This document shows, in pieces, positions 1-62,781 of a stretch of DNA of 64,000 nucleotides. The stretch comes from a virus (Duplodnaviria > Caudoviricetes). Position numbers and translations under genes: made by a program. Under the pieces are notes generated by a model, which worked only from the letters and a program-made list of their open reading frames with translations, was not told the origin of the DNA and ran no database searches. The stretch is taken from the IMG/VR virus record IMGVR_UViG_3300042257_000126, positions 1-64,000 of that record; one strand, written 5' to 3'. How positions within the stretch are numbered: position 1 is the stretch's first letter; each line of letters begins with the position of its first letter.

Positions 1-84
1 AACGTTCCGCAGGTAAATGCCGTGCCTGCACAATTTTCAAATCACGGCACAAACTTCAACAGCATGGCATTTGACCTGCTGTTA
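1..84. repeat. attC-like hairpin 0 (cut by window edge)
   Basis: AAC-GTTCC-GCAGGTAAATGCC...GGCATTTGACCTGC-T-GTTA, extra G in right arm. Confidence 0.8.
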
Positions 85-100
85 TAAAACGTTTTTAGCA

Positions 101-331
101 ATGGAAATTGAAGCGACAAATCTCAGAAAGGACTATAAATTTTTAACAATAAAATCACATTTTGGGAAATACTTGGTTGAGTATTATTCAAATAGAGTTC
201 CGGGACATAGGTCAGAAATATTTGCAACAATGCAAGCAGCAAAAAGATTTTGCACAATGGATATTCAAAACCCAAAATGGGGTAAAGATTATCCTAAATT
301 ACAGTGGCGTGCGAAAGCAAATGTTTTATAA
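101..331 (+). CDS. Cassette hypothetical protein (alternative start at 17, inside the hairpin)
   Basis: ORF fills cassette 81-332; its stop TAA is part of the TAAC core. Confidence 0.7.
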   Translation: MEIEATNLRKDYKFLTIKSHFGKYLVEYYSNRVPGHRSEIFATMQAAKRFCTMDIQNPKWGKDYPKLQWRAKANVL

Positions 332-455
332 CGTAAAAGCATTGCCGTCAGTGGCGGTTTAGAAGTACAAAAGTTTAATACCAGCACAAATGATTGATAG
401 AAGTACAAAAGTTGAAATAAAGAACGTCACCCGCCATTGCGGCAATGCAGTGTTA
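329..455. repeat. attC-like hairpin 1
   Basis: TAAC-GTAAAA-GCATTGCCGTCAGTGGCGG...CCGCCATTGCGGCAATGC-AGT-GTTA. Confidence 0.85.
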
Positions 456-1103
456 GGTGCAGTGCCTTATTCGGAAGTTTATTTGATGGACTGTGTCGCT
501 GGTTTGCGGCATTATCCAGACAATTATTTTGATTTGGCAGTAGTTGACCCGCCTTACGGGATAGGGATTGATGGGCAAAAGCAAAGTATTAATTTGAACA
601 ACCCGAAAGCAAACAGAAAAGAGCATAAATTCAGGGGATGGGATAATGATATACCTTCAAATGAATACTTTGATGAGCTGTGGCGTGTATCTAAAAATCA
701 AATCATTTGGGGTGCGAATTACTTTGTAGAACATTTAAACAAAGGCACAAAAGGGTGGATTGTCTGGTATAAAGGTCAAGAAGGATTAACAATGAGTGAT
801 GCAGAATTAGCATACAGTAGTTTTGATTGTGCCACAAGGGTTGTTAAAATAAACAGGGTTGAACTATTGAAGGACGGAACAATACACCCAACACAAAAGC
901 CTATAAAACTATATGATTGGATTTATGCTAATTATGCAAAGCAAGGAGATTTGATTTTAGATACACATTGCGGAAGCCAAGCCAGTCGAATTGCAGCGGA
1001 TAAGGCGGGTCTTAACTTTGTCGGATTTGAAATTGATGAGGAATATTTTAATGCCGCAAACAAGCGTTTTGATAACTTCAAATCGCAGACGAGGCTGTTT
1101 TAG
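390..1103 (+). CDS. DNA N6-adenine/N4-cytosine methyltransferase (beta-type motif order)
   Basis: DPPY catalytic motif, HPTQKP, ILDTHCGS SAM-binding variant, GFEID. Confidence 0.93.
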   Translation: MIDRSTKVEIKNVTRHCGNAVLGAVPYSEVYLMDCVAGLRHYPDNYFDLAVVDPPYGIGIDGQKQSINLNNPKANRKEHKFRGWDNDIPSNEYFDELWRVSKNQIIWGANYFVEHLNKGTKGWIVWYKGQEGLTMSDAELAYSSFDCATRVVKINRVELLKDGTIHPTQKPIKLYDWIYANYAKQGDLILDTHCGSQASRIAADKAGLNFVGFEIDEEYFNAANKRFDNFKSQTRLF

Positions 1104-1113
1104 GCATTGCACC

Positions 1114-1241
1114 TAACGTTTGACGGTAAACTCTCGTTGCCGTTCTAAATACGAGAGATAAATTTTCAAATTACTACAAAATGAAAAACGAAGCAGAAAA
1201 TATTGATAAACAACAAGGCGATGGAGTTTTACCGTGTGTTA
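1114..1241. repeat. attC-like hairpin 2
   Basis: TAAC-GTTTG-ACGGTAAACTC...GAGTTTTACCGT-GT-GTTA. Confidence 0.85.
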
Positions 1242-1387
1242 GCCGTAGTTTTATTGGCTTATTCATGCACTATGATAATGGCGATATGGTAAACATTCAA
1301 GATTTACCAAAACCAGAATACGAGAAATTTCTTGAACAAATGAACGCATTAAGAATGGCATACATCACCTTGGTTAGTCGTCCGTAA
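1181..1387 (+). CDS. Small cassette hypothetical protein
   Basis: 68 aa ORF starting inside hairpin 2 and ending at the cassette inverted repeat. Confidence 0.7.
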   Translation: MKNEAENIDKQQGDGVLPCVSRSFIGLFMHYDNGDMVNIQDLPKPEYEKFLEQMNALRMAYITLVSRP

Positions 1388-1395
1388 ATTACGGC

Positions 1396-1442
1396 TAACG
1401 GTGAGTGTAACAGGTCGTTTTAATGCCTGTTACACATTGTTA
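1396..1442. repeat. attC-like hairpin 3 (47 bp)
   Basis: TAAC-GGTGA-GTGTAACAGG...CCTGTTACAC-ATT-GTTA. Confidence 0.85.
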
Positions 1443-1474
1443 GGTGTAGTATGAACGGATTAAAAGAATGAAAG

Positions 1475-2059
1475 ATGAAAAAATATAAAACGATAATAGC
1501 AGACCCACCTTGGAAATATAAAGGGCGTGGTCCAGCATCAGCAAAAGAACACCGACCTAATAGTTACGGTGCTGCTCCAAGTAGTGAAGAACGCTATGGG
1601 GCAATGAGTATGGAAGAACTGAAACAACTGCCAATTAAGAATATGATTGAAGATAAAGCACACCTTTATTTGTGGGTAACAAACGCATTTATAGAACGTG
1701 GATGGCAGTTGTGTAAGGATTGGGGATTTGAGCCAAAAACAGTGGTTACGTGGGGGAAACTTAGAAAAGCAGACGGGCAACCAAGTATGAAAACAGGCTA
1801 CTATTTTAGAGGTGCGACTGAACACTTCATATTTGCAACCAAAGGTAACCTTAGATTAAAAGACAAAGCGGTTGAGCCAACACTGTTTTTGAGCGAAAGG
1901 CTGCCGCATAGCGTAAAGCCTGAATGGTTCTACGACCTTGTAGATAGGTGTTCTTTTGCAGACAAGTTAGAACTATTTTCGAGGCGTGAACGAAATGGGT
2001 GGGACTGCTGGGGCAACCAAGCTGAAAATAGCATTGACCTTAGTGAATATTACACCTAA
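1475..2059 (+). CDS. MT-A70 family adenine methyltransferase
   Basis: IIADPPW, LYLWVTN, WGF, TEH, HSVKP, LELFSR, GWDCWGNQ motifs. Confidence 0.93.
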   Translation: MKKYKTIIADPPWKYKGRGPASAKEHRPNSYGAAPSSEERYGAMSMEELKQLPIKNMIEDKAHLYLWVTNAFIERGWQLCKDWGFEPKTVVTWGKLRKADGQPSMKTGYYFRGATEHFIFATKGNLRLKDKAVEPTLFLSERLPHSVKPEWFYDLVDRCSFADKLELFSRRERNGWDCWGNQAENSIDLSEYYT

Positions 2060-2182
2060 CGTTTTGCGTGTATAAGAAGTGGTGGATTTAGAACCCGAAA
2101 CTTTCAATACAGCACTACACTTAATTTGAAAAACGAATGTTGAATATACCACTGAACACGCCATTTTTTATACACGCTGTTA
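2057..2182. repeat. attC-like hairpin 4
   Basis: TAAC-GTTTT-GCGTGTATAAGAAGTGG...CCATTTTTTATACACGC-T-GTTA. Confidence 0.85.
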
Positions 2183-2275
2183 TAAGCTGGTGCGGTTTAT
2201 TATCACAGAACTTGAATCGAAGAACGAAACCTTTTTCTTTTCTTTTTTGTGCAGTGGGAAAATAAAAATTTAATA

Positions 2276-2602
2276 ATGAAAGATAGAGAATATGTAACAA
2301 CTAATGGCAGAGCAGTATTTTACGCTGCTATGTGGAACGATTTAAGACAAGCTGCAATGGATAAAGGTTGGGCATTAGCCTTACACGGAAGCCTTGCAAG
2401 TGATATGGATATTATGGCGATGCCTTGGACAAAAGAAGCCACAAATGATAATGAAATGATAGAAGCAATTAAAAACTGTTTTACTGATTGCAGTAAAATA
2501 AAGGTGGAAATATCTAAAATGCCTAACAACAGGATTGTTTACACACTTTCAATATTTGGGGATTTTTATTTGGACATAAATATTATAAATAACAAAGGAT
2601 GA
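2276..2602 (+). CDS. Hypothetical protein, possible minimal nucleotidyltransferase fold
   Basis: ALHGSLASDMDI resembles the hGS..DhD Pol-beta NTase motif; ATG at 2276 follows an A-rich leader. Confidence 0.55.
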   Translation: MKDREYVTTNGRAVFYAAMWNDLRQAAMDKGWALALHGSLASDMDIMAMPWTKEATNDNEMIEAIKNCFTDCSKIKVEISKMPNNRIVYTLSIFGDFYLDINIINNKG

Positions 2603-3381
2603 ATATAGATTTAAGACAAGGAGAAGCACTCGCGGGAATGCAGAAAATGGTAGATGAAGGTATTGTTGTTGATATGATACTTGCAGACTTACCCTATGGA
2701 ACAACGAGTAATAAATGGGATGCAGTAATTCCGTTTGAACCAATGTGGGAACTTTATTGGAAGCTACTTAAACCAACAGGTGTAATTGTATTAACTGCTT
2801 CTCAGCCATTTTCAAGTGCCTTGATTATGAGCCAACCAAAATATTTTAAACACGAATGGATATGGTTGAAAAACAGAGGCAGTAATTTTGCAAATACAGT
2901 AAGAGAACCAATGAAGGAACACGAACATGTGTTGGTTTTTAGCAAGGGTAAATGGACTTACAATAAGCAAATGCAAGAAAGAACTGGTGCTGGACTTGAT
3001 AGAGTAAAATATAATGTGAAGTTTGAAAGTAAGTCTGAAAATTACAGAGAATTTGAAGGTAGGGTTGAAAACCAACTATCTGATTTGAGAGTTCCTTCAA
3101 GTTGGCAAAAATTCAATACCGATACAAGTGGATTGCACCCAACAATTAAACCTATACCGCTTTTTGAGTATATGATTAAGACATACACAAATGAAGGTGA
3201 AACGGTGTTGGATAACACAATGGGAAGTGGAACAACTGCAATAGCCTGTATGAATTTGAATAGAAATTTCATAGGTATTGAACTTGAAGAAAAATATTTT
3301 CAGGTAGCAAAAAAGAGGGTGGAAGAAAAAAGAAAAGAAAAAGATTTACAAGCAGGAACTCTATTCGGAGACGAAATGTAG
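2599..3381 (+). CDS. DNA N6-adenine/N4-cytosine methyltransferase
   Basis: DLPY, HPTIKP, VLDNTMGSGTT, GIEL motifs. Confidence 0.93.
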   Translation: MNIDLRQGEALAGMQKMVDEGIVVDMILADLPYGTTSNKWDAVIPFEPMWELYWKLLKPTGVIVLTASQPFSSALIMSQPKYFKHEWIWLKNRGSNFANTVREPMKEHEHVLVFSKGKWTYNKQMQERTGAGLDRVKYNVKFESKSENYREFEGRVENQLSDLRVPSSWQKFNTDTSGLHPTIKPIPLFEYMIKTYTNEGETVLDNTMGSGTTAIACMNLNRNFIGIELEEKYFQVAKKRVEEKRKEKDLQAGTLFGDEM

Positions 3382-3391
3382 CACTTGCTTA

Positions 3392-3517
3392 TAACGTATG
3401 GCGGTATGGTGTCGTAGCGGATTAGATGCACAAGCCTATCGAACTGTACGGAAGTAAATAGAAAGCAAAAAATATTGAATTAAACACTAAAACCGCTATG
3501 CACTATACCACGTGTTG
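3392..3517. repeat. attC-like hairpin 5
   Basis: TAAC-GTATGGC-GGTATGGTGTCGTAGCGG...CCGCTATGCACTATACC-ACGT-GTTG. Confidence 0.8.
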
Positions 3518-3539
3518 TAAACTGTAAATACGGTAAAAT

Positions 3540-4172
3540 ATGAACGAAATGAACTTAATAAATACAGACTGCTTACAAGCCTTACGAGAATGTAAAGACA
3601 AGCAATTCAACTTGGCATTAACTGACCCACCTTATAATGTAGGCAGAAAGTATAATGAATATGACGATACACGCCAAGCGAAAGAATACGAAAAATGGTG
3701 TAAAGATTGGTTAAATGAGCTTTTGAGAACTTGTGAAACTGTTGTAATGACTGTTGGTTATAAAAACCTAAAGTTTTGGATTAACCAAGACCCAAAACAT
3801 ATGATGATATGGCACAAACCAAACCAAAACAGTCCAAGCCCTTTAGGTGGATTTAATGCTTATGAACCTGTATTGTTTTGGGGTAAAAATCAAAAGCGAA
3901 TTGGACACGATATATTCAAAACAAATATTGCTATGCAAGAAGAAGCTGCTTGGCACGATTGCCCGAAACACCTGCCAAGTTGGACTAAATTACTTGATAT
4001 GATAGCTGATGAAGGAATGAATATAGTGGACCCGTTTTTAGGAAGCGGAACGACTGCAATTGCTTGTCATAAACTTAAAATGAATTTTACTGGATATGAA
4101 ATTGATAAGACGTATTATGATAAGGCTTGTAAGCGGATTAAACACTACACTTCGCAAATGGCACTATGGTAG
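3540..4172 (+). CDS. DNA N6-adenine/N4-cytosine methyltransferase
   Basis: TDPPY, HDCPK, VDPFLGSGTT, GYEID motifs. Confidence 0.93.
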   Translation: MNEMNLINTDCLQALRECKDKQFNLALTDPPYNVGRKYNEYDDTRQAKEYEKWCKDWLNELLRTCETVVMTVGYKNLKFWINQDPKHMMIWHKPNQNSPSPLGGFNAYEPVLFWGKNQKRIGHDIFKTNIAMQEEAAWHDCPKHLPSWTKLLDMIADEGMNIVDPFLGSGTTAIACHKLKMNFTGYEIDKTYYDKACKRIKHYTSQMALW

Positions 4173-4185
4173 TATTTATTGTTTA

Positions 4186-4279
4186 CAACGTAGATGCGGT
4201 ATGGTTAGTAAAGCCACCCACTATCGCAGCCTATGAAATACAAACTTTAATTGGCTTTATTAACTATGACCGCTTGTTA
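4186..4279. repeat. attC-like hairpin 6
   Basis: CAAC-GTAGAT-GCGGTATGGTTAGTAAAGCCA...TGGCTTTATTAACTATGACCGC-TT-GTTA, extra G in right arm. Confidence 0.85.
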
Positions 4280-4301
4280 GCGGTTGTTATTTACTTTACT
4301 T

Positions 4302-4511
4302 ATGGATAAATTAATAGCAGAAATAGGCGATACAATAAGTTGGACATTTGATGATAAGCCAACAGAGAGCGAAATGTTTAGAGGTAAAACATTTAGTGCA
4401 GAAGTGGCAATGGTAGATGTTGAAGAAAGGCACTACGGTGTATATGCGGATTACGGACAAGATTTAATACCATTTGAGCACGCCACTATTCAGCGGACTA
4501 ATAACCGCTAA
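4302..4511 (+). CDS. Small cassette hypothetical protein
   Basis: ORF fills cassette 4276-4512; its stop is part of the TAAC core. Confidence 0.7.
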   Translation: MDKLIAEIGDTISWTFDDKPTESEMFRGKTFSAEVAMVDVEERHYGVYADYGQDLIPFEHATIQRTNNR

Positions 4512-4544
4512 CTATGTTGTATATGTAATGCACACCCGTGCAAA
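4509..4544. repeat. Array-terminal conserved site, copy 1 (candidate attI-like site)
   Basis: TAACTATGTTGTATATGTAATGCACACCCGTGCAAA, 32/36 identical to 62746-62781. Confidence 0.7.
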
Positions 4545-6744: not shown

Positions 6745-7034
6745 AAAAGCTAACGGAAGACTTGTACATCGACAGCGATCCCGATTGCTTTACGTTGTAC
6801 CAAAAGAGAACAGTAAAAGATAAAGACAGAAAGAACTTTGGCAAGGAATCGTTTCCTGTTGTCGGGTACTACGCTACTTACGAGCAGGTAAGTAAGAAGA
6901 TTGCTGAAATTGGAGTAAAAGAATATATTGATAAAGATTGGTTGCAGTGTGTGGAGTTTGTTAACGAAGCACACGAAAACTTTCTGAGTAACGTGAAAGA
7001 ACTTTTAAGTAAAAGATATGGAAAAACTAATTGA
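6741..7034 (+). CDS. Hypothetical protein
   Basis: ORF overlapping both neighbours. Confidence 0.7.
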   Translation: MKKLTEDLYIDSDPDCFTLYQKRTVKDKDRKNFGKESFPVVGYYATYEQVSKKIAEIGVKEYIDKDWLQCVEFVNEAHENFLSNVKELLSKRYGKTN

Positions 7035-7542
7035 AATACAAAGAACATTAAAAGCACCAAAGAACCAATTCAATAAATTTGGTAATTATAAGTATCGTTC
7101 AGCAGAAGATATACTTGAGGCCGCCAAACCATTGTGTACACAGAACGGTGCGTTGTTGACGCTTACTGATGATGTTGTTGAGATCGGTGGTAAGATATTT
7201 GTTAAGGCAACAGCTACGTTTCAACACGAATCGTTTACACACAGCGTTTCTGCTTTTGCTATGCACCCGGAAGATAGAAAGGGAATGGATGCAAGCCAGA
7301 TAACCGGAGCATCTTCGTCGTATGCAAGGAAATATGCTTTAAACGGGTTGTTCTGTATTGACGATGGGAAAGACAATGATTCCCTCGATTCTGCACACAA
7401 AAGAAAGCAAATTAAACTCCCAAGAGAAAAGGTTGACGACGCTGTAAAATTTATAAAAAGCGGTAAGACGATGGACGAACTAAAACAGTTTTATGACATT
7501 GACGCAGCCGTTGAAAAAGAAATTGTAAAGAAACTTGTATGA
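7018..7542 (+). CDS. erf: ERF family ssDNA-annealing protein
   Basis: KAPKNQFNKFGNYKYRSAEDILEA and QITGASSSYARKYALNGLF signatures. Confidence 0.92.
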   Translation: MEKLIEIQRTLKAPKNQFNKFGNYKYRSAEDILEAAKPLCTQNGALLTLTDDVVEIGGKIFVKATATFQHESFTHSVSAFAMHPEDRKGMDASQITGASSSYARKYALNGLFCIDDGKDNDSLDSAHKRKQIKLPREKVDDAVKFIKSGKTMDELKQFYDIDAAVEKEIVKKLV

Positions 7543-8162
7543 ATTTAAGATTTGACATAGAACAGGGAACACCCGAATGGCATGAGATTAAATACGGAAA
7601 GTTCAGTGCATCTGTGGCAGATAATCTACTAATGGGCGAGAACACCGCTGGCTACAACAGTTTAATTAGTCGTATTGTGGAGGAACGGTTTACCGGCAGA
7701 AAAACAGATGGTAAGTCTTTTAGCAATGGTTACATGGAACGTGGTATTGAAATGGAGGAAGAAGCTGTTGAATATTACGAGGCATTGCATTTATGTTCGA
7801 CACAAAAGATTGGTGTTATAGAGGTGGATGATTGGGTTGTGGTAAGTCCTGACCGACTTATTGGCGATGACGGATTGCTACAAATTAAGTGTCCTATATT
7901 CAATACACAGGTTGGATATTTGAAGTCAGGAAAAGTTCCGAACAACTACTTTAAACAAATGCAGTTTGAACTGTGGGCTTCCCAAAGGGATTATAATGTG
8001 TTTTTTTCCTATCATCCTGATTTACCACCATTGGAAGTTGTTGTTGAGCCAGACAAGAAAGTGTTTGAATTGATTGAAAGCAGACTTGAAAAAGCTAAAG
8101 AACAAGTCGTTGCTGATTGTGAATTTTTATCTAACTTAATGTTGAAATATGTTTCCACTTAG
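7539..8162 (+). CDS. YqaJ/lambda-exonuclease family nuclease
   Basis: EQGTPEW, SAS, MERGIEME, SPDRL, QIKCP, QMQ motifs. Confidence 0.9.
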   Translation: MNLRFDIEQGTPEWHEIKYGKFSASVADNLLMGENTAGYNSLISRIVEERFTGRKTDGKSFSNGYMERGIEMEEEAVEYYEALHLCSTQKIGVIEVDDWVVVSPDRLIGDDGLLQIKCPIFNTQVGYLKSGKVPNNYFKQMQFELWASQRDYNVFFSYHPDLPPLEVVVEPDKKVFELIESRLEKAKEQVVADCEFLSNLMLKYVST

Positions 8163-52005: not shown

Positions 52006-52176
52006 ATGAGGTGTAAATATGAACAAATCTGAATCTCGTTACAAATATAAGCAATTAATCGTTATGATCCAAATTTTAACACGTTGTATATGCATTTTTT
52101 TCAAAATGCACATACAACAACGTTAGCGCAAATATTGAAAAGAAAACACGAGGATAATGCTTAAAATGATTTAAAA

Positions 52177-52596
52177 ATGGATACACAAAAAATTGAACAA
52201 GTCTTTTCAATGGCAAATAAAATAGCCTTTCATCCGACAAGAAATGTTCAAAAAGAACCATCTGTTGTCGGATTGGAATTTCACAAAAACTTATTAGGAG
52301 AAGCAATAGATTGCTATTCAAACTTAAAAAATGAATTAACACATAGAGACTTGGTGTTTACGTTTAAAAGAATTAAAAACGGAATAAAAGCATCAATAAT
52401 ATCAAAATCAAAAGGAGAAGTAATGTCATTTAGAATAAGTCAAGAAAAAGGAATGACTGAATTTGCCAAAGAAACAAATCCAAATCATCCTTTCGCTTTT
52501 GTAATATTACAGCCATCTAACGACGGATATCATCTTGTTCCTGATTCAAATCCTTATCAACCGATTGTTTTCGACAAATATGTTTTGATAGAATAA
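52177..52596 (+). CDS. Hypothetical protein inside cassette
   Basis: 139 aa A-rich ORF, antisense to the late operon. Confidence 0.65.
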   Translation: MDTQKIEQVFSMANKIAFHPTRNVQKEPSVVGLEFHKNLLGEAIDCYSNLKNELTHRDLVFTFKRIKNGIKASIISKSKGEVMSFRISQEKGMTEFAKETNPNHPFAFVILQPSNDGYHLVPDSNPYQPIVFDKYVLIE

Positions 52597-52669
52597 ACTT
52601 TCCATTAGGTGATTCTTTTACCAGAATATCTCTACCGTTTTTAGCAAATATAAAATCTACTCTTTTCAT
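52517..52669 (-). CDS. Small hypothetical protein (50 aa)
   Basis: MKRVDFIFAKNGRDILVKESPNGKF..., convergent with and overlapping 52177-52596. Confidence 0.4.
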   Translation of the reverse strand: MKRVDFIFAKNGRDILVKESPNGKFILSKHICRKQSVDKDLNQEQDDIRR

Positions 52670-52716
52670 ATAACAAAAATACAACACAAAAAAGAAACCG
52701 ATAAAAAAGCAGTAAA

Positions 52717-53088
52717 ATGGGACTATTCAGTTTTAACGAAGATGTATTAACAGAATTATATTTTCACGATACAGGAACAAGTATAAAACAAACAGTAGTA
52801 GGCAAAAACAAGGAAGAACTAATTGCCCAAAACGCAATTACTTTTATCGTCCACTACTTTTCAATTGTAAAAAACAATGAAGAAAAAATGGAATTACAAC
52901 TACAAAGAGATTATAAAACAAGTCACCTGTGTAAACGATTTCGCCTCATTGCTTTTATATTGTTCCATATACGCCAAAAACCAATAGTAAGATTAACAAA
53001 ACAGAGCGCATATAACACAGCAATATTAATTGCGTCTTTAGCGATGATCATGATAATGATAATCACAATCATTATGACGATTGAATAG
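52717..53088 (+). CDS. Hypothetical protein with a C-terminal TM segment
   Basis: 123 aa ORF with a hydrophobic tail. Confidence 0.6.
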   Translation: MGLFSFNEDVLTELYFHDTGTSIKQTVVGKNKEELIAQNAITFIVHYFSIVKNNEEKMELQLQRDYKTSHLCKRFRLIAFILFHIRQKPIVRLTKQSAYNTAILIASLAMIMIMIITIIMTIE

Positions 53089-53114
53089 ATAGACTTTTTT
53101 ATTGCAGTAATCAT
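52923..53114 (-). CDS. Small hydrophobic protein
   Basis: 63 aa, AT-rich leader, overlaps the 3' end of 52717-53088. Confidence 0.45.
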   Translation of the reverse strand: MITAIKKSIYSIVIMIVIIIIMIIAKDAINIAVLYALCFVNLTIGFWRIWNNIKAMRRNRLHR

Positions 53115-53136
53115 TAACTTTTAAATTTTATAAATT

Positions 53137-53364
53137 ATGAAACTTAATTACACCAAAAATCTCGACGAACTAACCGAAAAAGAATTAATGCAATTTATAA
53201 TCGGAACACAAACGTTAATTCTTCGCAGACTTGATGACATTGAATCAAAAATCAAAGACCGCAAAGAGCAAACACACCAAGAAACTGTTGACGAAATACT
53301 ATTCAAAGTAGAATCAAACATTGACAGAATAAACGAAACACTTGAAAGAAAAGCTACAAATTAA
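53137..53364 (+). CDS. Small coiled-coil protein
   Basis: 75 aa with a good leader. Confidence 0.6.
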   Translation: MKLNYTKNLDELTEKELMQFIIGTQTLILRRLDDIESKIKDRKEQTHQETVDEILFKVESNIDRINETLERKATN

Positions 53365-53551
53365 TGCTGTATCGCATCTTGACCATATAACAATCAGCAG
53401 TGGGATGGTCGTCTGCTTTTGGATAGGCAGTAATCATATTAATTTTAGCATCTACAATTTTTCGGTTTAGCAAATCAACTGTTTGTTCAATGTCCGCCTT
53501 GATGTTATCAATTTTTTCTTGCGTTAATTGGTCAATGACACTTACTGACAT
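53354..53551 (-). CDS. Small hypothetical protein
   Basis: ATG 53551 just inside the cassette boundary. Confidence 0.55.
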   Translation of the reverse strand: MSVSVIDQLTQEKIDNIKADIEQTVDLLNRKIVDAKINMITAYPKADDHPTADCYMVKMRYSINL

Positions 53552-53707
53552 ATTACTTATTTTTAAAAACAAGCAAATTGACTAAAAAGACAAAATACTT
53601 GCGCTAACACTGTGCAAATGCCACTCGCCTCTTAGCTTTTACGGCAGTTCCATCTCGTTAGCTGGTTATGCGCCTCTAATTATTGTTGACGGAAAAGCGA
53701 GAGGCAC

Positions 53708-61023: not shown

Positions 61024-61512
61024 TCAAGCCTCATCGTAATATCCATTAAACGTGTCTTTGCAAAATTTCTTCAATTCGCCTTCATAGCGAAACCATTCTC
61101 CACGAGACCTATTTGCCCAAAAGCGTTTATGAAAATTTCTTTCAACCACACGATCTCCTTCCACAAAACCAAGGATTCTTAAACTAAAAGGACAACCGCT
61201 CTGTAATGATTCAATCCTACTCAAAGGATTTTTACTATAACCAATTTTGCAAAAACCATAGTCCTCATTTACAAAAAAATATACATAATCTCCTTCAAGA
61301 TTTTGTTTTTTTCTCATTTGTTTCGCTTCACTGACTTTGTCCCAATATTCCAAAAAAGGAATTTGAAAAACATCCTCAAATAATTGAAATAAATGTTTTT
61401 TCTTTAAGTAAGATAATGGTTTTCCTTGATGGAATATAATTCTCTTTTCTCTTAATTTATTCCTACAAAGTTTAAGTTGTTGTTGAGATAAACTGTAATT
61501 GCTTTTTTTCAT
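61024..61512 (-). CDS. GIY-YIG family, T5orf172/MUG113-like protein
   Basis: YVYF..KIGYS..RIESLQSGCP..ERNFH..RGEWF. Confidence 0.88.
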   Translation of the reverse strand: MKKSNYSLSQQQLKLCRNKLREKRIIFHQGKPLSYLKKKHLFQLFEDVFQIPFLEYWDKVSEAKQMRKKQNLEGDYVYFFVNEDYGFCKIGYSKNPLSRIESLQSGCPFSLRILGFVEGDRVVERNFHKRFWANRSRGEWFRYEGELKKFCKDTFNGYYDEA

Positions 61513-62349: not shown

Positions 62350-62781
62350 TAAAGGTACTGCCGTATGAGACGTGCCGAGTAATTAATAACTAAAAAAAAA
62401 AATAATATGAAAACAAATTGTGGAAGTTCCCCTGATAGTTCAACAAAGCCGGAAGTCATGGATTATGACGGCATGTTAACAACTGGCTTTTATTGGCATC
62501 CGAGATACAGCCAGACCGATGAGCCAGACAAACAAGGACGGTGGTCGAGGCTTTGCTTTTATCGTAAATTTCTAATTGCATGGATAAGTAGGCAACAAGT
62601 GAACGAAACTGTAATGTATGTTGTAACTGATTTTTTCCCGACAAATGGAAATAGTAACCCATGCTTTGTGGAAGCTACCGAAGATTTTGAAAAAGCAAAA
62701 GAAGGGGTGGAAAAACGTTTCAACGAGTTTCTTAAAGCTTGTTGTTAACTATGTTGTATGTGTAATGCGCACTTGTGCAAA
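62350..62781 (+). mobile_element. Third cassette locus: hairpin 62350-62478, one cassette 62475-62749, terminal site 62746-62781
   Basis: TGCCGTATGA...TTATGACGGCA-T-GTTA; GTTAACAACTGGCTTT / AAAGCTTGTTGTTAAC; 36 bp site shared with 4509. Confidence 0.8.
62407..62748 (+). CDS. Cassette hypothetical protein
   Basis: Starts inside the hairpin and stops at the TAAC core. Confidence 0.7.
   Translation: MKTNCGSSPDSSTKPEVMDYDGMLTTGFYWHPRYSQTDEPDKQGRWSRLCFYRKFLIAWISRQQVNETVMYVVTDFFPTNGNSNPCFVEATEDFEKAKEGVEKRFNEFLKACC

Follow-up and report, generated by a model that had tools for sequence, protein, structure and literature searches.

Probable integron-type gene cassettes in a Caudoviricetes contig carry their genes inverted relative to the recombination site

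In integrons, the strand choice of the integrase IntI is assumed to put promoterless genes in the sense orientation behind a single promoter. The exchanged AAC triplet lies on the attC site's recombined bottom strand, and the open reading frame (ORF) of the cassette occupies the opposite strand, upstream of the site (PMC5027507). Virulent phages have been described with attC clusters that have no integron integrase (CALINs) and that carry methyltransferases as cargo, and one of these sites, P12002L_attC2 from a Polaribacter phage, was recombined by IntI1 (Qi et al. 2023, PMC9892861). Here we analyse an array of attC-like hairpins at the start of the virus contig IMGVR_UViG_3300042257_000126 (Duplodnaviria; Caudoviricetes), which has 73,569 nucleotides (nt) and is rated 92% complete; the window that we analysed comprises its bases 1-64000. 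Positions 1-4512 of the window hold seven cassettes with eight plus-strand genes, divided by AAC...GTT hairpins, and these are probably integron-type gene cassettes in which the genes are inverted relative to the recombination site.

Like class 1 and sedentary chromosomal integrons, the array shows the architecture of attC sites, with imperfect hairpins, inverted AAC/GTT cores and cassette ends that are complementary to each other, and it is made of promoterless one- or few-gene cassettes that all point in one direction; the exchange also appears to take place within the AAC/GTT triplet, as it does in integrons. As in chromosomal integrons, the sites form families of uniform length with shared internal sequence. 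Unlike in integrons, where the coding strand reads ORF and then its attC, here the hairpin precedes the gene and the gene would be on the folded (recombined) strand, IntI was not found, and the arrays, which belong to a phage early operon, close downstream with a conserved site without a hairpin. With seven sites within 4.3 kb and no intI found, as judged with our own structural finder and by homology to the P12002L sites, the array would probably count as a CALIN, and the hairpins of phage P12002L belong to the same family as those of the window, down to an identical short-site loop. Published work already covers methyltransferase-bearing attC clusters of phages; the flipped polarity and the gene starts inside hairpins are apparently new. 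The accessible text of Qi et al. (2023, PMC9892861) does not describe gene-site polarity beyond the "divergent directions" of two P12002L sites, nor does it describe in-site starts, bacterial counterpart arrays or a non-IntI recombinase. Likewise, the searchable literature (which extends neither to paywalled papers nor to the supplements of Qi et al. 2023) yielded no description of a flipped gene polarity or of start and N-terminal codons inside the site, nor of bacterial counterpart arrays or of a non-IntI (Xer-like) enzyme for such arrays in Bacteroidota.

Half of the array genes (four of eight) encode DNA methyltransferases, three of the N6_N4 family and one of the MT-A70 family, and the array hairpins are either about 45 nt or about 92-126 nt long. 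Two further loci in the window, at 52078-53608 and 62350-62749, consist of a single cassette. The features are given below in order, with sites running from the start of AAC to the end of GTT on the coding (plus) strand and protein lengths in amino acids (aa).

1-83, plus strand: site A, attC-like hairpin; the contig start coincides with its AAC; G bulge in the GTT-side arm
101-331, plus strand: 76-aa cassette ORF, or 104 aa counted from ATG 17 within site A; stops at the TAA of TAAC; without a Pfam family
330-454, plus strand: site B, long hairpin of 125 nt; ATG at 390 in the loop; T bulge in the AAC-side arm
390-1103, plus strand: N6_N4 DNA methyltransferase; the first 21 or so codons lie within site B and the frame continues through GTT
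1115-1240, plus strand: site C, long hairpin of 126 nt; ATG at 1181 in the loop; T bulge in the GTT-side arm
1181-1387, plus strand: 68-aa ORF with 115 homologue clusters; conserved core from the GTT codon, variable hairpin-encoded N-terminal leader
1397-1441, plus strand: site D, short hairpin of 45 nt; loop TCGTTTTAATG, recurring in related short sites; no bulge
1475-2059, plus strand: MT-A70 family methyltransferase; starts 34 nt past GTT; its stop is the TAA of TAAC
2058-2181, plus strand: site E, long hairpin; no bulge; the loop ATG opens a 42-aa ORF only, which stops before the next gene
2276-3381, plus strand: two-gene cassette, with a 108-aa ORF (2276-2602) and an N6_N4 methyltransferase (2599-3381)
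3393-3516, plus strand: site F, long hairpin; T bulge in the AAC-side arm; kept with the downstream gene in relative L035
3540-4172, plus strand: N6_N4 DNA methyltransferase; starts after GTT
4186-4278, plus strand: site G, hairpin; G bulge in the GTT-side arm
4302-4511, plus strand: last cassette ORF, with its start at TTG 4284 or ATG 4302; its stop is the TAA of TAAC
4509-4544, plus strand: array end, a candidate landing (attI-like) site; TAAC and then conserved sequence, no closing hairpin
52078-53608, plus strand: single multi-gene cassette; 47-nt hairpin (52078-52124) at the left end and plain GCGCTAAC at the right end
62350-62749, plus strand: single cassette; hairpin 62350-62477, without a 5' AAC; A-rich leader and ATG 62407 in the loop; ORF 62407-62748

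The features singled out in the initial annotation are present where it placed them, with a qualification for the G bulge at 62350-62477 (see below). Thus, the stops at 329-331, 2057-2059, 4509-4511 and 62746-62748 are indeed the TAA of TAAC; the remaining four cassette ORFs stop 10-14 nt upstream of AAC. The array-end sequence 4509-4544 recurs at 62746-62781, where it closes the single cassette, and it is also found in a relative (L001) beside a different cassette.

The initial annotation held that the mobile unit is a hairpin plus its downstream gene, and suggested checking in other genomes which gene each hairpin travels with. We retrieved relatives of four cassette proteins from viral contigs, plus one locus with the array-end sequence, as well as 18 loci of a genome collection that carry the short-site loop motif, for which about one would be expected by chance. 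In close relatives, from 93% nt identity upwards, the downstream gene is kept and the upstream neighbour is changed. For instance, hairpin 330-454 and the 390 methyltransferase gene stay together in L037/L038, L039 and L040 (89-96% identity) behind DNA that is unrelated in each up to TAAC, which makes four different upstream contexts, and homology ends again at the next AAC. Likewise, hairpin 3393-3516 and the 3540 methyltransferase gene occur in two upstream contexts (L035, at 99.6% identity), and hairpin 1397-1441 with its MT-A70 gene has two more upstream neighbours in metagenome contigs. We then counted the ends of homology blocks over 51 loci oriented by site polarity, with duplicates removed; the AAC cases come from about five to six cassette families and are not all independent. 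Left block ends fall at the 5' AAC in both partners in 13 cases and in one partner in 1 more, at GTT in 1 and inside the site in 1; right block ends fall at AAC in 11 cases and never at GTT or inside the site, and a further 28 ends lie away from any site. Without any right end at GTT, there is no instance among these 51 loci of a hairpin kept with its upstream gene.

Contigs assembled from four other metagenome runs, used as independent material, break at 1396/1397, 2061 and 4508/4509, which accounts for 5 of the 21 loose ends listed; none is at the GTT end, and the other 16 fall outside site boundaries. In addition, the two loci with a single cassette each carry their hairpin on the side upstream of the gene, and their opposite end is a bare AAC. 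Together, the block ends at AAC, the contig breaks at AAC and the layout of the single cassettes indicate that the mobile unit is C-hairpin-GTT-gene(s)-AA on the coding strand, in agreement with the initial annotation. The cassettes of L039 and L043 are followed by T instead of C, which places the exchange after AA. Block ends and AA-T junctions alike are consistent with an exchange between the AA and the C of the hairpin's 5' AAC on the recombined strand, equivalent to a position between G and TT on the other.

In two of the relatives the same hairpin-methyltransferase cassette, 96.5% identical to window 328-1117, is present twice per array (L037, 1367-2156 and 3820-4609; L038, 2439-3228 and 4892-5681), as a result of cassette duplication inside the phage array. 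All four metagenome runs also contain short shared stretches that end at 2297 and start at 3468 and then continue into the same unrelated sequence at higher depth, and one metagenome joint links 922 to 3271, with a short side of 20 nt.

The orientation of the genes follows the same rule across phage-type contigs. When polarity is defined by the long spacer after AAC, the gene strand matches the site polarity for 94 ORFs and opposes it for 3, in 25 loci, some of which are redundant and some of which are contigs of metagenome-assembled genomes (MAGs) with a phage-derived look; in the window, all eight array genes are sense to the polarity strand. In the aadA1 cassette of plasmid R100, which served as canonical control, attC follows the gene downstream and has its bulges on the AAC arm of the coding strand. 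The arrangement opposite to that of the phage-type contigs is found in bacterial chromosomes with sites of the same family. In the Flavobacteriales isolate genome G001, contig C22 (244174-259285) contains 11 sites of one polarity over 15 kb, which match window sites B and E in length, flanks and internal motifs, and there 16 ORFs are antisense to the site polarity and 2 are sense; this array has tyrosine-recombinase pseudogene fragments at its AAC-side end and within. Likewise, the chromosomal locus L151, found through homologues of a 392-aa recombinase (see below), has 12 antisense ORFs and no sense ORF, and in L150 the single long ORF (265 aa) is antisense and two short ORFs (85 and 64 aa) are sense. 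The Bacteroidota chromosomal arrays thus share length classes, internal motif and spacer asymmetry with the window sites and differ from them in having the genes antisense and a recombinase at the AAC-side end, whereas in the window the genes are sense and a recombinase was not found. Since arrays of the same family carry their genes on the other strand, the reversal noted in the initial annotation, which these comparisons bear out, holds against the family's own canonical form and not only against class 1 integrons.

The cassettes of L151 (741-14812; G102, contig C7) are very large and multi-gene, with about 5.5 kb and about 8.5 kb between sites, compared with the single-gene phage cassettes.

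Sites were called with a duplex-energy finder, which replaced exact-stem and end-repeat finders that were too noisy or missed sites. Hairpins as stable as these, at duplex energies of -12.8 or lower, and with these flanks are rare elsewhere in the contig, with one background candidate at -12.9 and three at -12.3 to -12.6. The spacers are asymmetric, unlike those of integrons: from the first to the seventh array site, there are 5/1, 6/3, 5/2, 5/3, 5/1, 7/4 and 6/2 nt after AAC/before GTT. The claim that the longer spacer follows AAC is hence true for all seven. The initial annotation also reported an unpaired G in the arm next to GTT in three sites. Folding places it there at 1-83 and 4186-4278; at 62350-62477 the sequence allows a G bulge (6 bp, G, 2 bp), which energy-minimised folds do not choose. 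Counting that one, the bulges of the nine sites of the contig are on the GTT arm in four (A, C, G and 62350-62477), on the AAC arm in two (B and F) and lacking in three; classical extrahelical bases are, in contrast to integrons, mostly absent or on the other arm.

The cassette ends offer a second marker. By reading and with the end-repeat finder, each cassette is bracketed by an imperfect inverted repeat, GTT.../...AAC, with 10-18 nt matched. Among 69 cassettes picked solely for a 9/9 Watson-Crick core, position 11 of the paired ends is a G.T pair on the coding strand in 58, and pairing then resumes, with 60-61 cassettes paired at positions 12-14 and 50 at position 15, for a total of about 15 bp, another difference from integrons. 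G:T pairs are enriched on the recombined strand in integrons (PMC5027507). Spacer asymmetry (about 5-6 nt after AAC versus 1-3 nt before GTT) and the paired cassette ends are more reliable markers of polarity than the extrahelical G.

Written as a motif, the cassette ends read A-G-T after GTT-N6, opposite A-T-T before N6-AAC (window 81-4512 and 62475-62749, and related loci). Two cassette ends of the bacterial array of G001, compared by eye, have T opposite T where the phage cassettes have G.T.

Translation signals that lie in a recombination site and serve the neighbouring cassette gene have been described for ORF-11, ORF-17 and ORF-18 of attI1 and for short ORFs in attC (PMC8876359). Those are separate small ORFs, acting through translational coupling at attI1 or relief of attC stem-loops (PMC8876359), whereas here the loop would hold the gene's own start codon, with the 3' arm and core of the site being part of the protein. 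As the initial annotation had noticed, ORFs 390-1103, 1181-1387 and 62407-62748 begin at an ATG in the hairpin loop and run through GTT. In 30 of 57 distinct long hairpins there is an ATG from which 80 or more codons stay open, and, in the 50 long hairpins with a clear downstream gene, an in-hairpin ATG is open through GTT+30 in the frame of the gene in 36 cases, compared with 8 of 100 in the other frames. The frame of the 390 gene is also open from the loop ATG in the diverged homologues L040, L041 and L043. In the 1181 family, which has 115 homologue clusters, conservation of the core sets in at the GTT codon, no in-frame start codon separates GTT from the core, and the Met at position 29 is not conserved; therefore, translation in this family would have to begin inside the hairpin. 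For the other loop ATGs, open frames suggest that they are used as starts.

Which enzyme would move these cassettes is suggested by the bacterial arrays. The contig, which is 92% complete and begins inside a site, so that its missing part might still hold such a gene, gave no match to the IntI model TIGR02249 and none to PF00589 at E<=1. Pfam searches with 20 further ORFs, including those flanking both array ends, returned no site-specific recombinase; they gave ERF, YqaJ, P-loop kinase-like, phosphoesterase, Cpn10, DUF3127 and T5orf172/MUG113 nuclease-like matches. Hardly any integrons have been reported in Bacteroidetes (PMC9024848), and we found no IntI above the cut-off in five site-bearing bacterial genomes or in 301 genomes of the order of G001. 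Upstream of the bacterial arrays of this site family there is a recombinase whose scores with the XerA, IntI, XerC and XerD models stay under the cut-offs, and its alignment to the IntI model passes over the stretch in which the IntI insertion lies. In G003 such sites adjoin a 392-aa recombinase, homologues of which are present in 145 of the 301 genomes. Sites were found in 4 of 30 homologue loci fetched, five in all, every one downstream of the gene and with a single polarity; for 12 of the 30 loci the contig breaks off no more than 735 nt past the recombinase gene. The actor is likely a host-supplied tyrosine recombinase, similar to Xer and IntI and without the integron-specific insertion. 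A comparable case is the Xer recombination of CTX phage at dif, where an enzyme without that insertion acts on a hairpin substrate of folded single-stranded DNA. Unlike in CTX, with its one phage attachment site, the window has many sites, which form cassette arrays, and apparently no dif-like site of 28 bp.

A related phage contig, G306, rated 99% complete and with overlapping ends, encodes a divergent tyrosine recombinase of 303 aa directly upstream of, and co-directional with, its phage array (L113 1081-1992, equivalent to 69054-69965 of the contig). It scores 26.7 bits with PF00589, just under the cut-off. We do not put this protein forward as the enzyme, given that a scan with it found only itself, NCBIfam returned nothing and four other related contigs are without one; close relatives of it were not found in viral contigs.

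A model that would accommodate these data is as follows. The coding strand would be the one that folds and recombines; seen from the non-coding strand, the unit would be a classical TT...AAC-hairpin-G cassette in which the gene is turned round. The entry point for new cassettes would be a target with an AAC where the array ends downstream, the TAAC and conserved sequence of 4509-4544 and 62746-62781. Because the site precedes its gene, the hairpins of about 125 nt could have been co-opted as the 5' end of the gene, with the AT-rich loop supplying a leader and the ATG, and with a short variable tail at the N-terminus being translated from the 3' arm, the spacer and the GTT core; short hairpins (about 45 nt) would simply precede the gene start.

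Several observations weigh against the reading of inverted integron-type cassettes. Among 113 distinct sites, 24 have their first bulge on the AAC arm, 6 have it on the GTT arm and 75 on neither, and by the classical bulge rule sites B and F resemble top strands; on these counts we rejected bulge side as a polarity marker for this family, and the extrahelical-G argument of the initial annotation is weak as general evidence. Strand signals inside the hairpins, from minimum free energies and G:T counts, are weak or mixed: G:T counts do not favour the plus strand (6 versus 9), and this strand is more stable in seven of nine sites, yet by an average margin of only about 1 kcal/mol. Some viral or MAG cassettes are in the canonical orientation (L006, L086). 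The sole left block end at GTT comes from L040 versus L041 (81% identity), and between the window and L002/L003 (85% nt identity) a hairpin is replaced with a boundary near GTT. Both would suit a canonical polarity in which the hairpin belongs to the upstream gene, as in class 1 integrons, and the reversal is an artefact of few comparisons; stops that overlap TAAC are also typical of canonical cassettes. We consider this highly improbable, because block ends fall at AAC on the right (11, none at GTT) as well as on the left (14), arrays end in a bare TAAC without a hairpin, single cassettes carry their hairpin upstream and metagenome contigs break at AACs. The conclusion of reversed polarity was right; what supports it is the comparison of sequences, not the extrahelical G. 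Against a tight linkage of hairpin and gene, the hairpin and both end repeats are replaced between the window and L036 (90% nt identity), the hairpin is replaced in two of the three comparisons at 85-90% identity, and the 68-aa family joins one conserved core to many different hairpin-encoded leaders. Hairpins and genes therefore seem to re-associate at larger distances; a circular cassette holds the whole site and both end repeats contiguous, and whole-site replacement or a rare exchange of the other strand would explain such swaps. Finally, TIGR02249, PF00589 and Pfam searches of the ORFs found no site-specific recombinase in the contig, and the array-bearing relative G309, rated 100% complete, is also without one. 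This, together with the ERF and YqaJ genes at 7018-8162, 2.5 kb downstream of the array, and with the fact that the presumed folded strand is the mRNA-sense strand, so that the hairpins and the G.T (G.U) pair also exist in the transcript, could indicate that the main role of the hairpins is in RNA, where they would stabilise mRNA, mark processing sites or serve as platforms for translation, and that shuffling is due to phage homologous recombination (ERF, YqaJ) on short conserved flanks. Such an explanation is improbable, if less so than canonical polarity: blocks end on AAC with only 3-5 shared bases and unrelated flanks, AA-T junctions occur at hairpin-less sites, bacterial arrays of the same family adjoin a tyrosine recombinase, and IntI1 recombined a site of Polaribacter phage P12002L, whose array has hairpins of this family (Qi et al. 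2023, PMC9892861).

The starts inside hairpins are the part of the reading with the strongest competitor, namely that the polarity is as described, but the real starts are at or just after GTT (GTG at 450, ATG at 62473, or rare starts), and the loop ATGs are by-products of a loop motif and of the preference of gene callers for long ORFs. Indeed, only three of the nine sites of the contig carry a gene start, the loop ATG is within a motif common to many long hairpins, and in site E, where the motif is also present, it opens nothing but a dead-end ORF of 42 aa. L083, which is homologous to the 62407 protein and has no hairpin, begins at the very point where the tail encoded by the hairpin stops; these tails are variable, polar and poorly conserved, and the few substitutions in the tail between the window and L037 are all non-synonymous. 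We nevertheless regard this explanation as rather unlikely, in view of the strong bias towards the gene frame among loop ATGs (36 of 50), of several cassettes with no ATG within 150 nt past GTT, and of the 1181 family, whose conserved residues begin at the GTT codon. Besides, the loop ATGs are preceded by A-rich leaders, as in other phage genes, and the alternative starts lie in the GC-richer stem. The proposal of the initial annotation that the site also carries translation signals and N-terminal codons thus seems to stand for the 1181 family and, from the frame bias, for many long hairpins, and not for all the sites of the contig. Neither of the outcomes that the initial annotation named as refuting it, hairpins co-occurring with the upstream gene or true starts downstream of GTT, was encountered.

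Taking inverted integron-type cassettes as the preferred reading, we tentatively propose something broader, which is possible without being the likelier outcome: phages of Flavobacteriales-type hosts might run a mirror-image integron, with a pool of cassettes that fold on the sense strand, one hairpin serving both as DNA recombination site and as start-codon platform of the mRNA, and a Xer-like enzyme without the integron-specific insertion. If this were true, the capture of single-stranded hairpin cassettes in the manner of integrons would not be tied to IntI, and phages would hold an anti-restriction cassette pool of their own, which in its sense could not be interchanged with the pool of their hosts. 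Sites of this kind are found here with a flipped gene, in a phage operon whose transcription runs towards the presumed landing site and with no IntI found; the system therefore bears on how the orientation of cassettes is set and on whether Xer-like enzymes can run an integron. The arrays also show phages stocking and exchanging DNA methyltransferases, which probably serve as anti-restriction genes, and start codons inside the site would place a single sequence under the constraints of both recombination structure and coding.

The ends of the arrays and the surroundings of the single cassettes show some additional features. Most array ends that lack a hairpin have TA as the base pair following their terminal AAC (L001, L006, L065, L066, L068, L086, L089, L096 and the window, at 4513 and 62750), which hints at a weak target preference. 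In a search for an empty site, the left-flank string of the 52078-53608 cassette had no match in viral contigs. The relative G308 (L118) shares the left flank up to window position 52063 and yielded no empty site either; from 52064 onward (L118 1-1080) it has, in place of the cassette, unrelated DNA with a long reverse-strand coding region, and this place is therefore a hotspot of variation. Some 850 nt before the 62350 cassette, on its upstream side, the window contains on the minus strand (61024-61512) an ORF with T5orf172/MUG113 domains, nuclease-like as in homing endonucleases. Past the end of the window, a second repeated intergenic element, consisting of a GC-rich hairpin and then CAGCCACAAAT, lies between small genes at 69200-73569 of the contig. 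The last 130 or so bases of the contig are a repeat of 69580-69710, which suggests that the contig end is an assembly break in a repeat.

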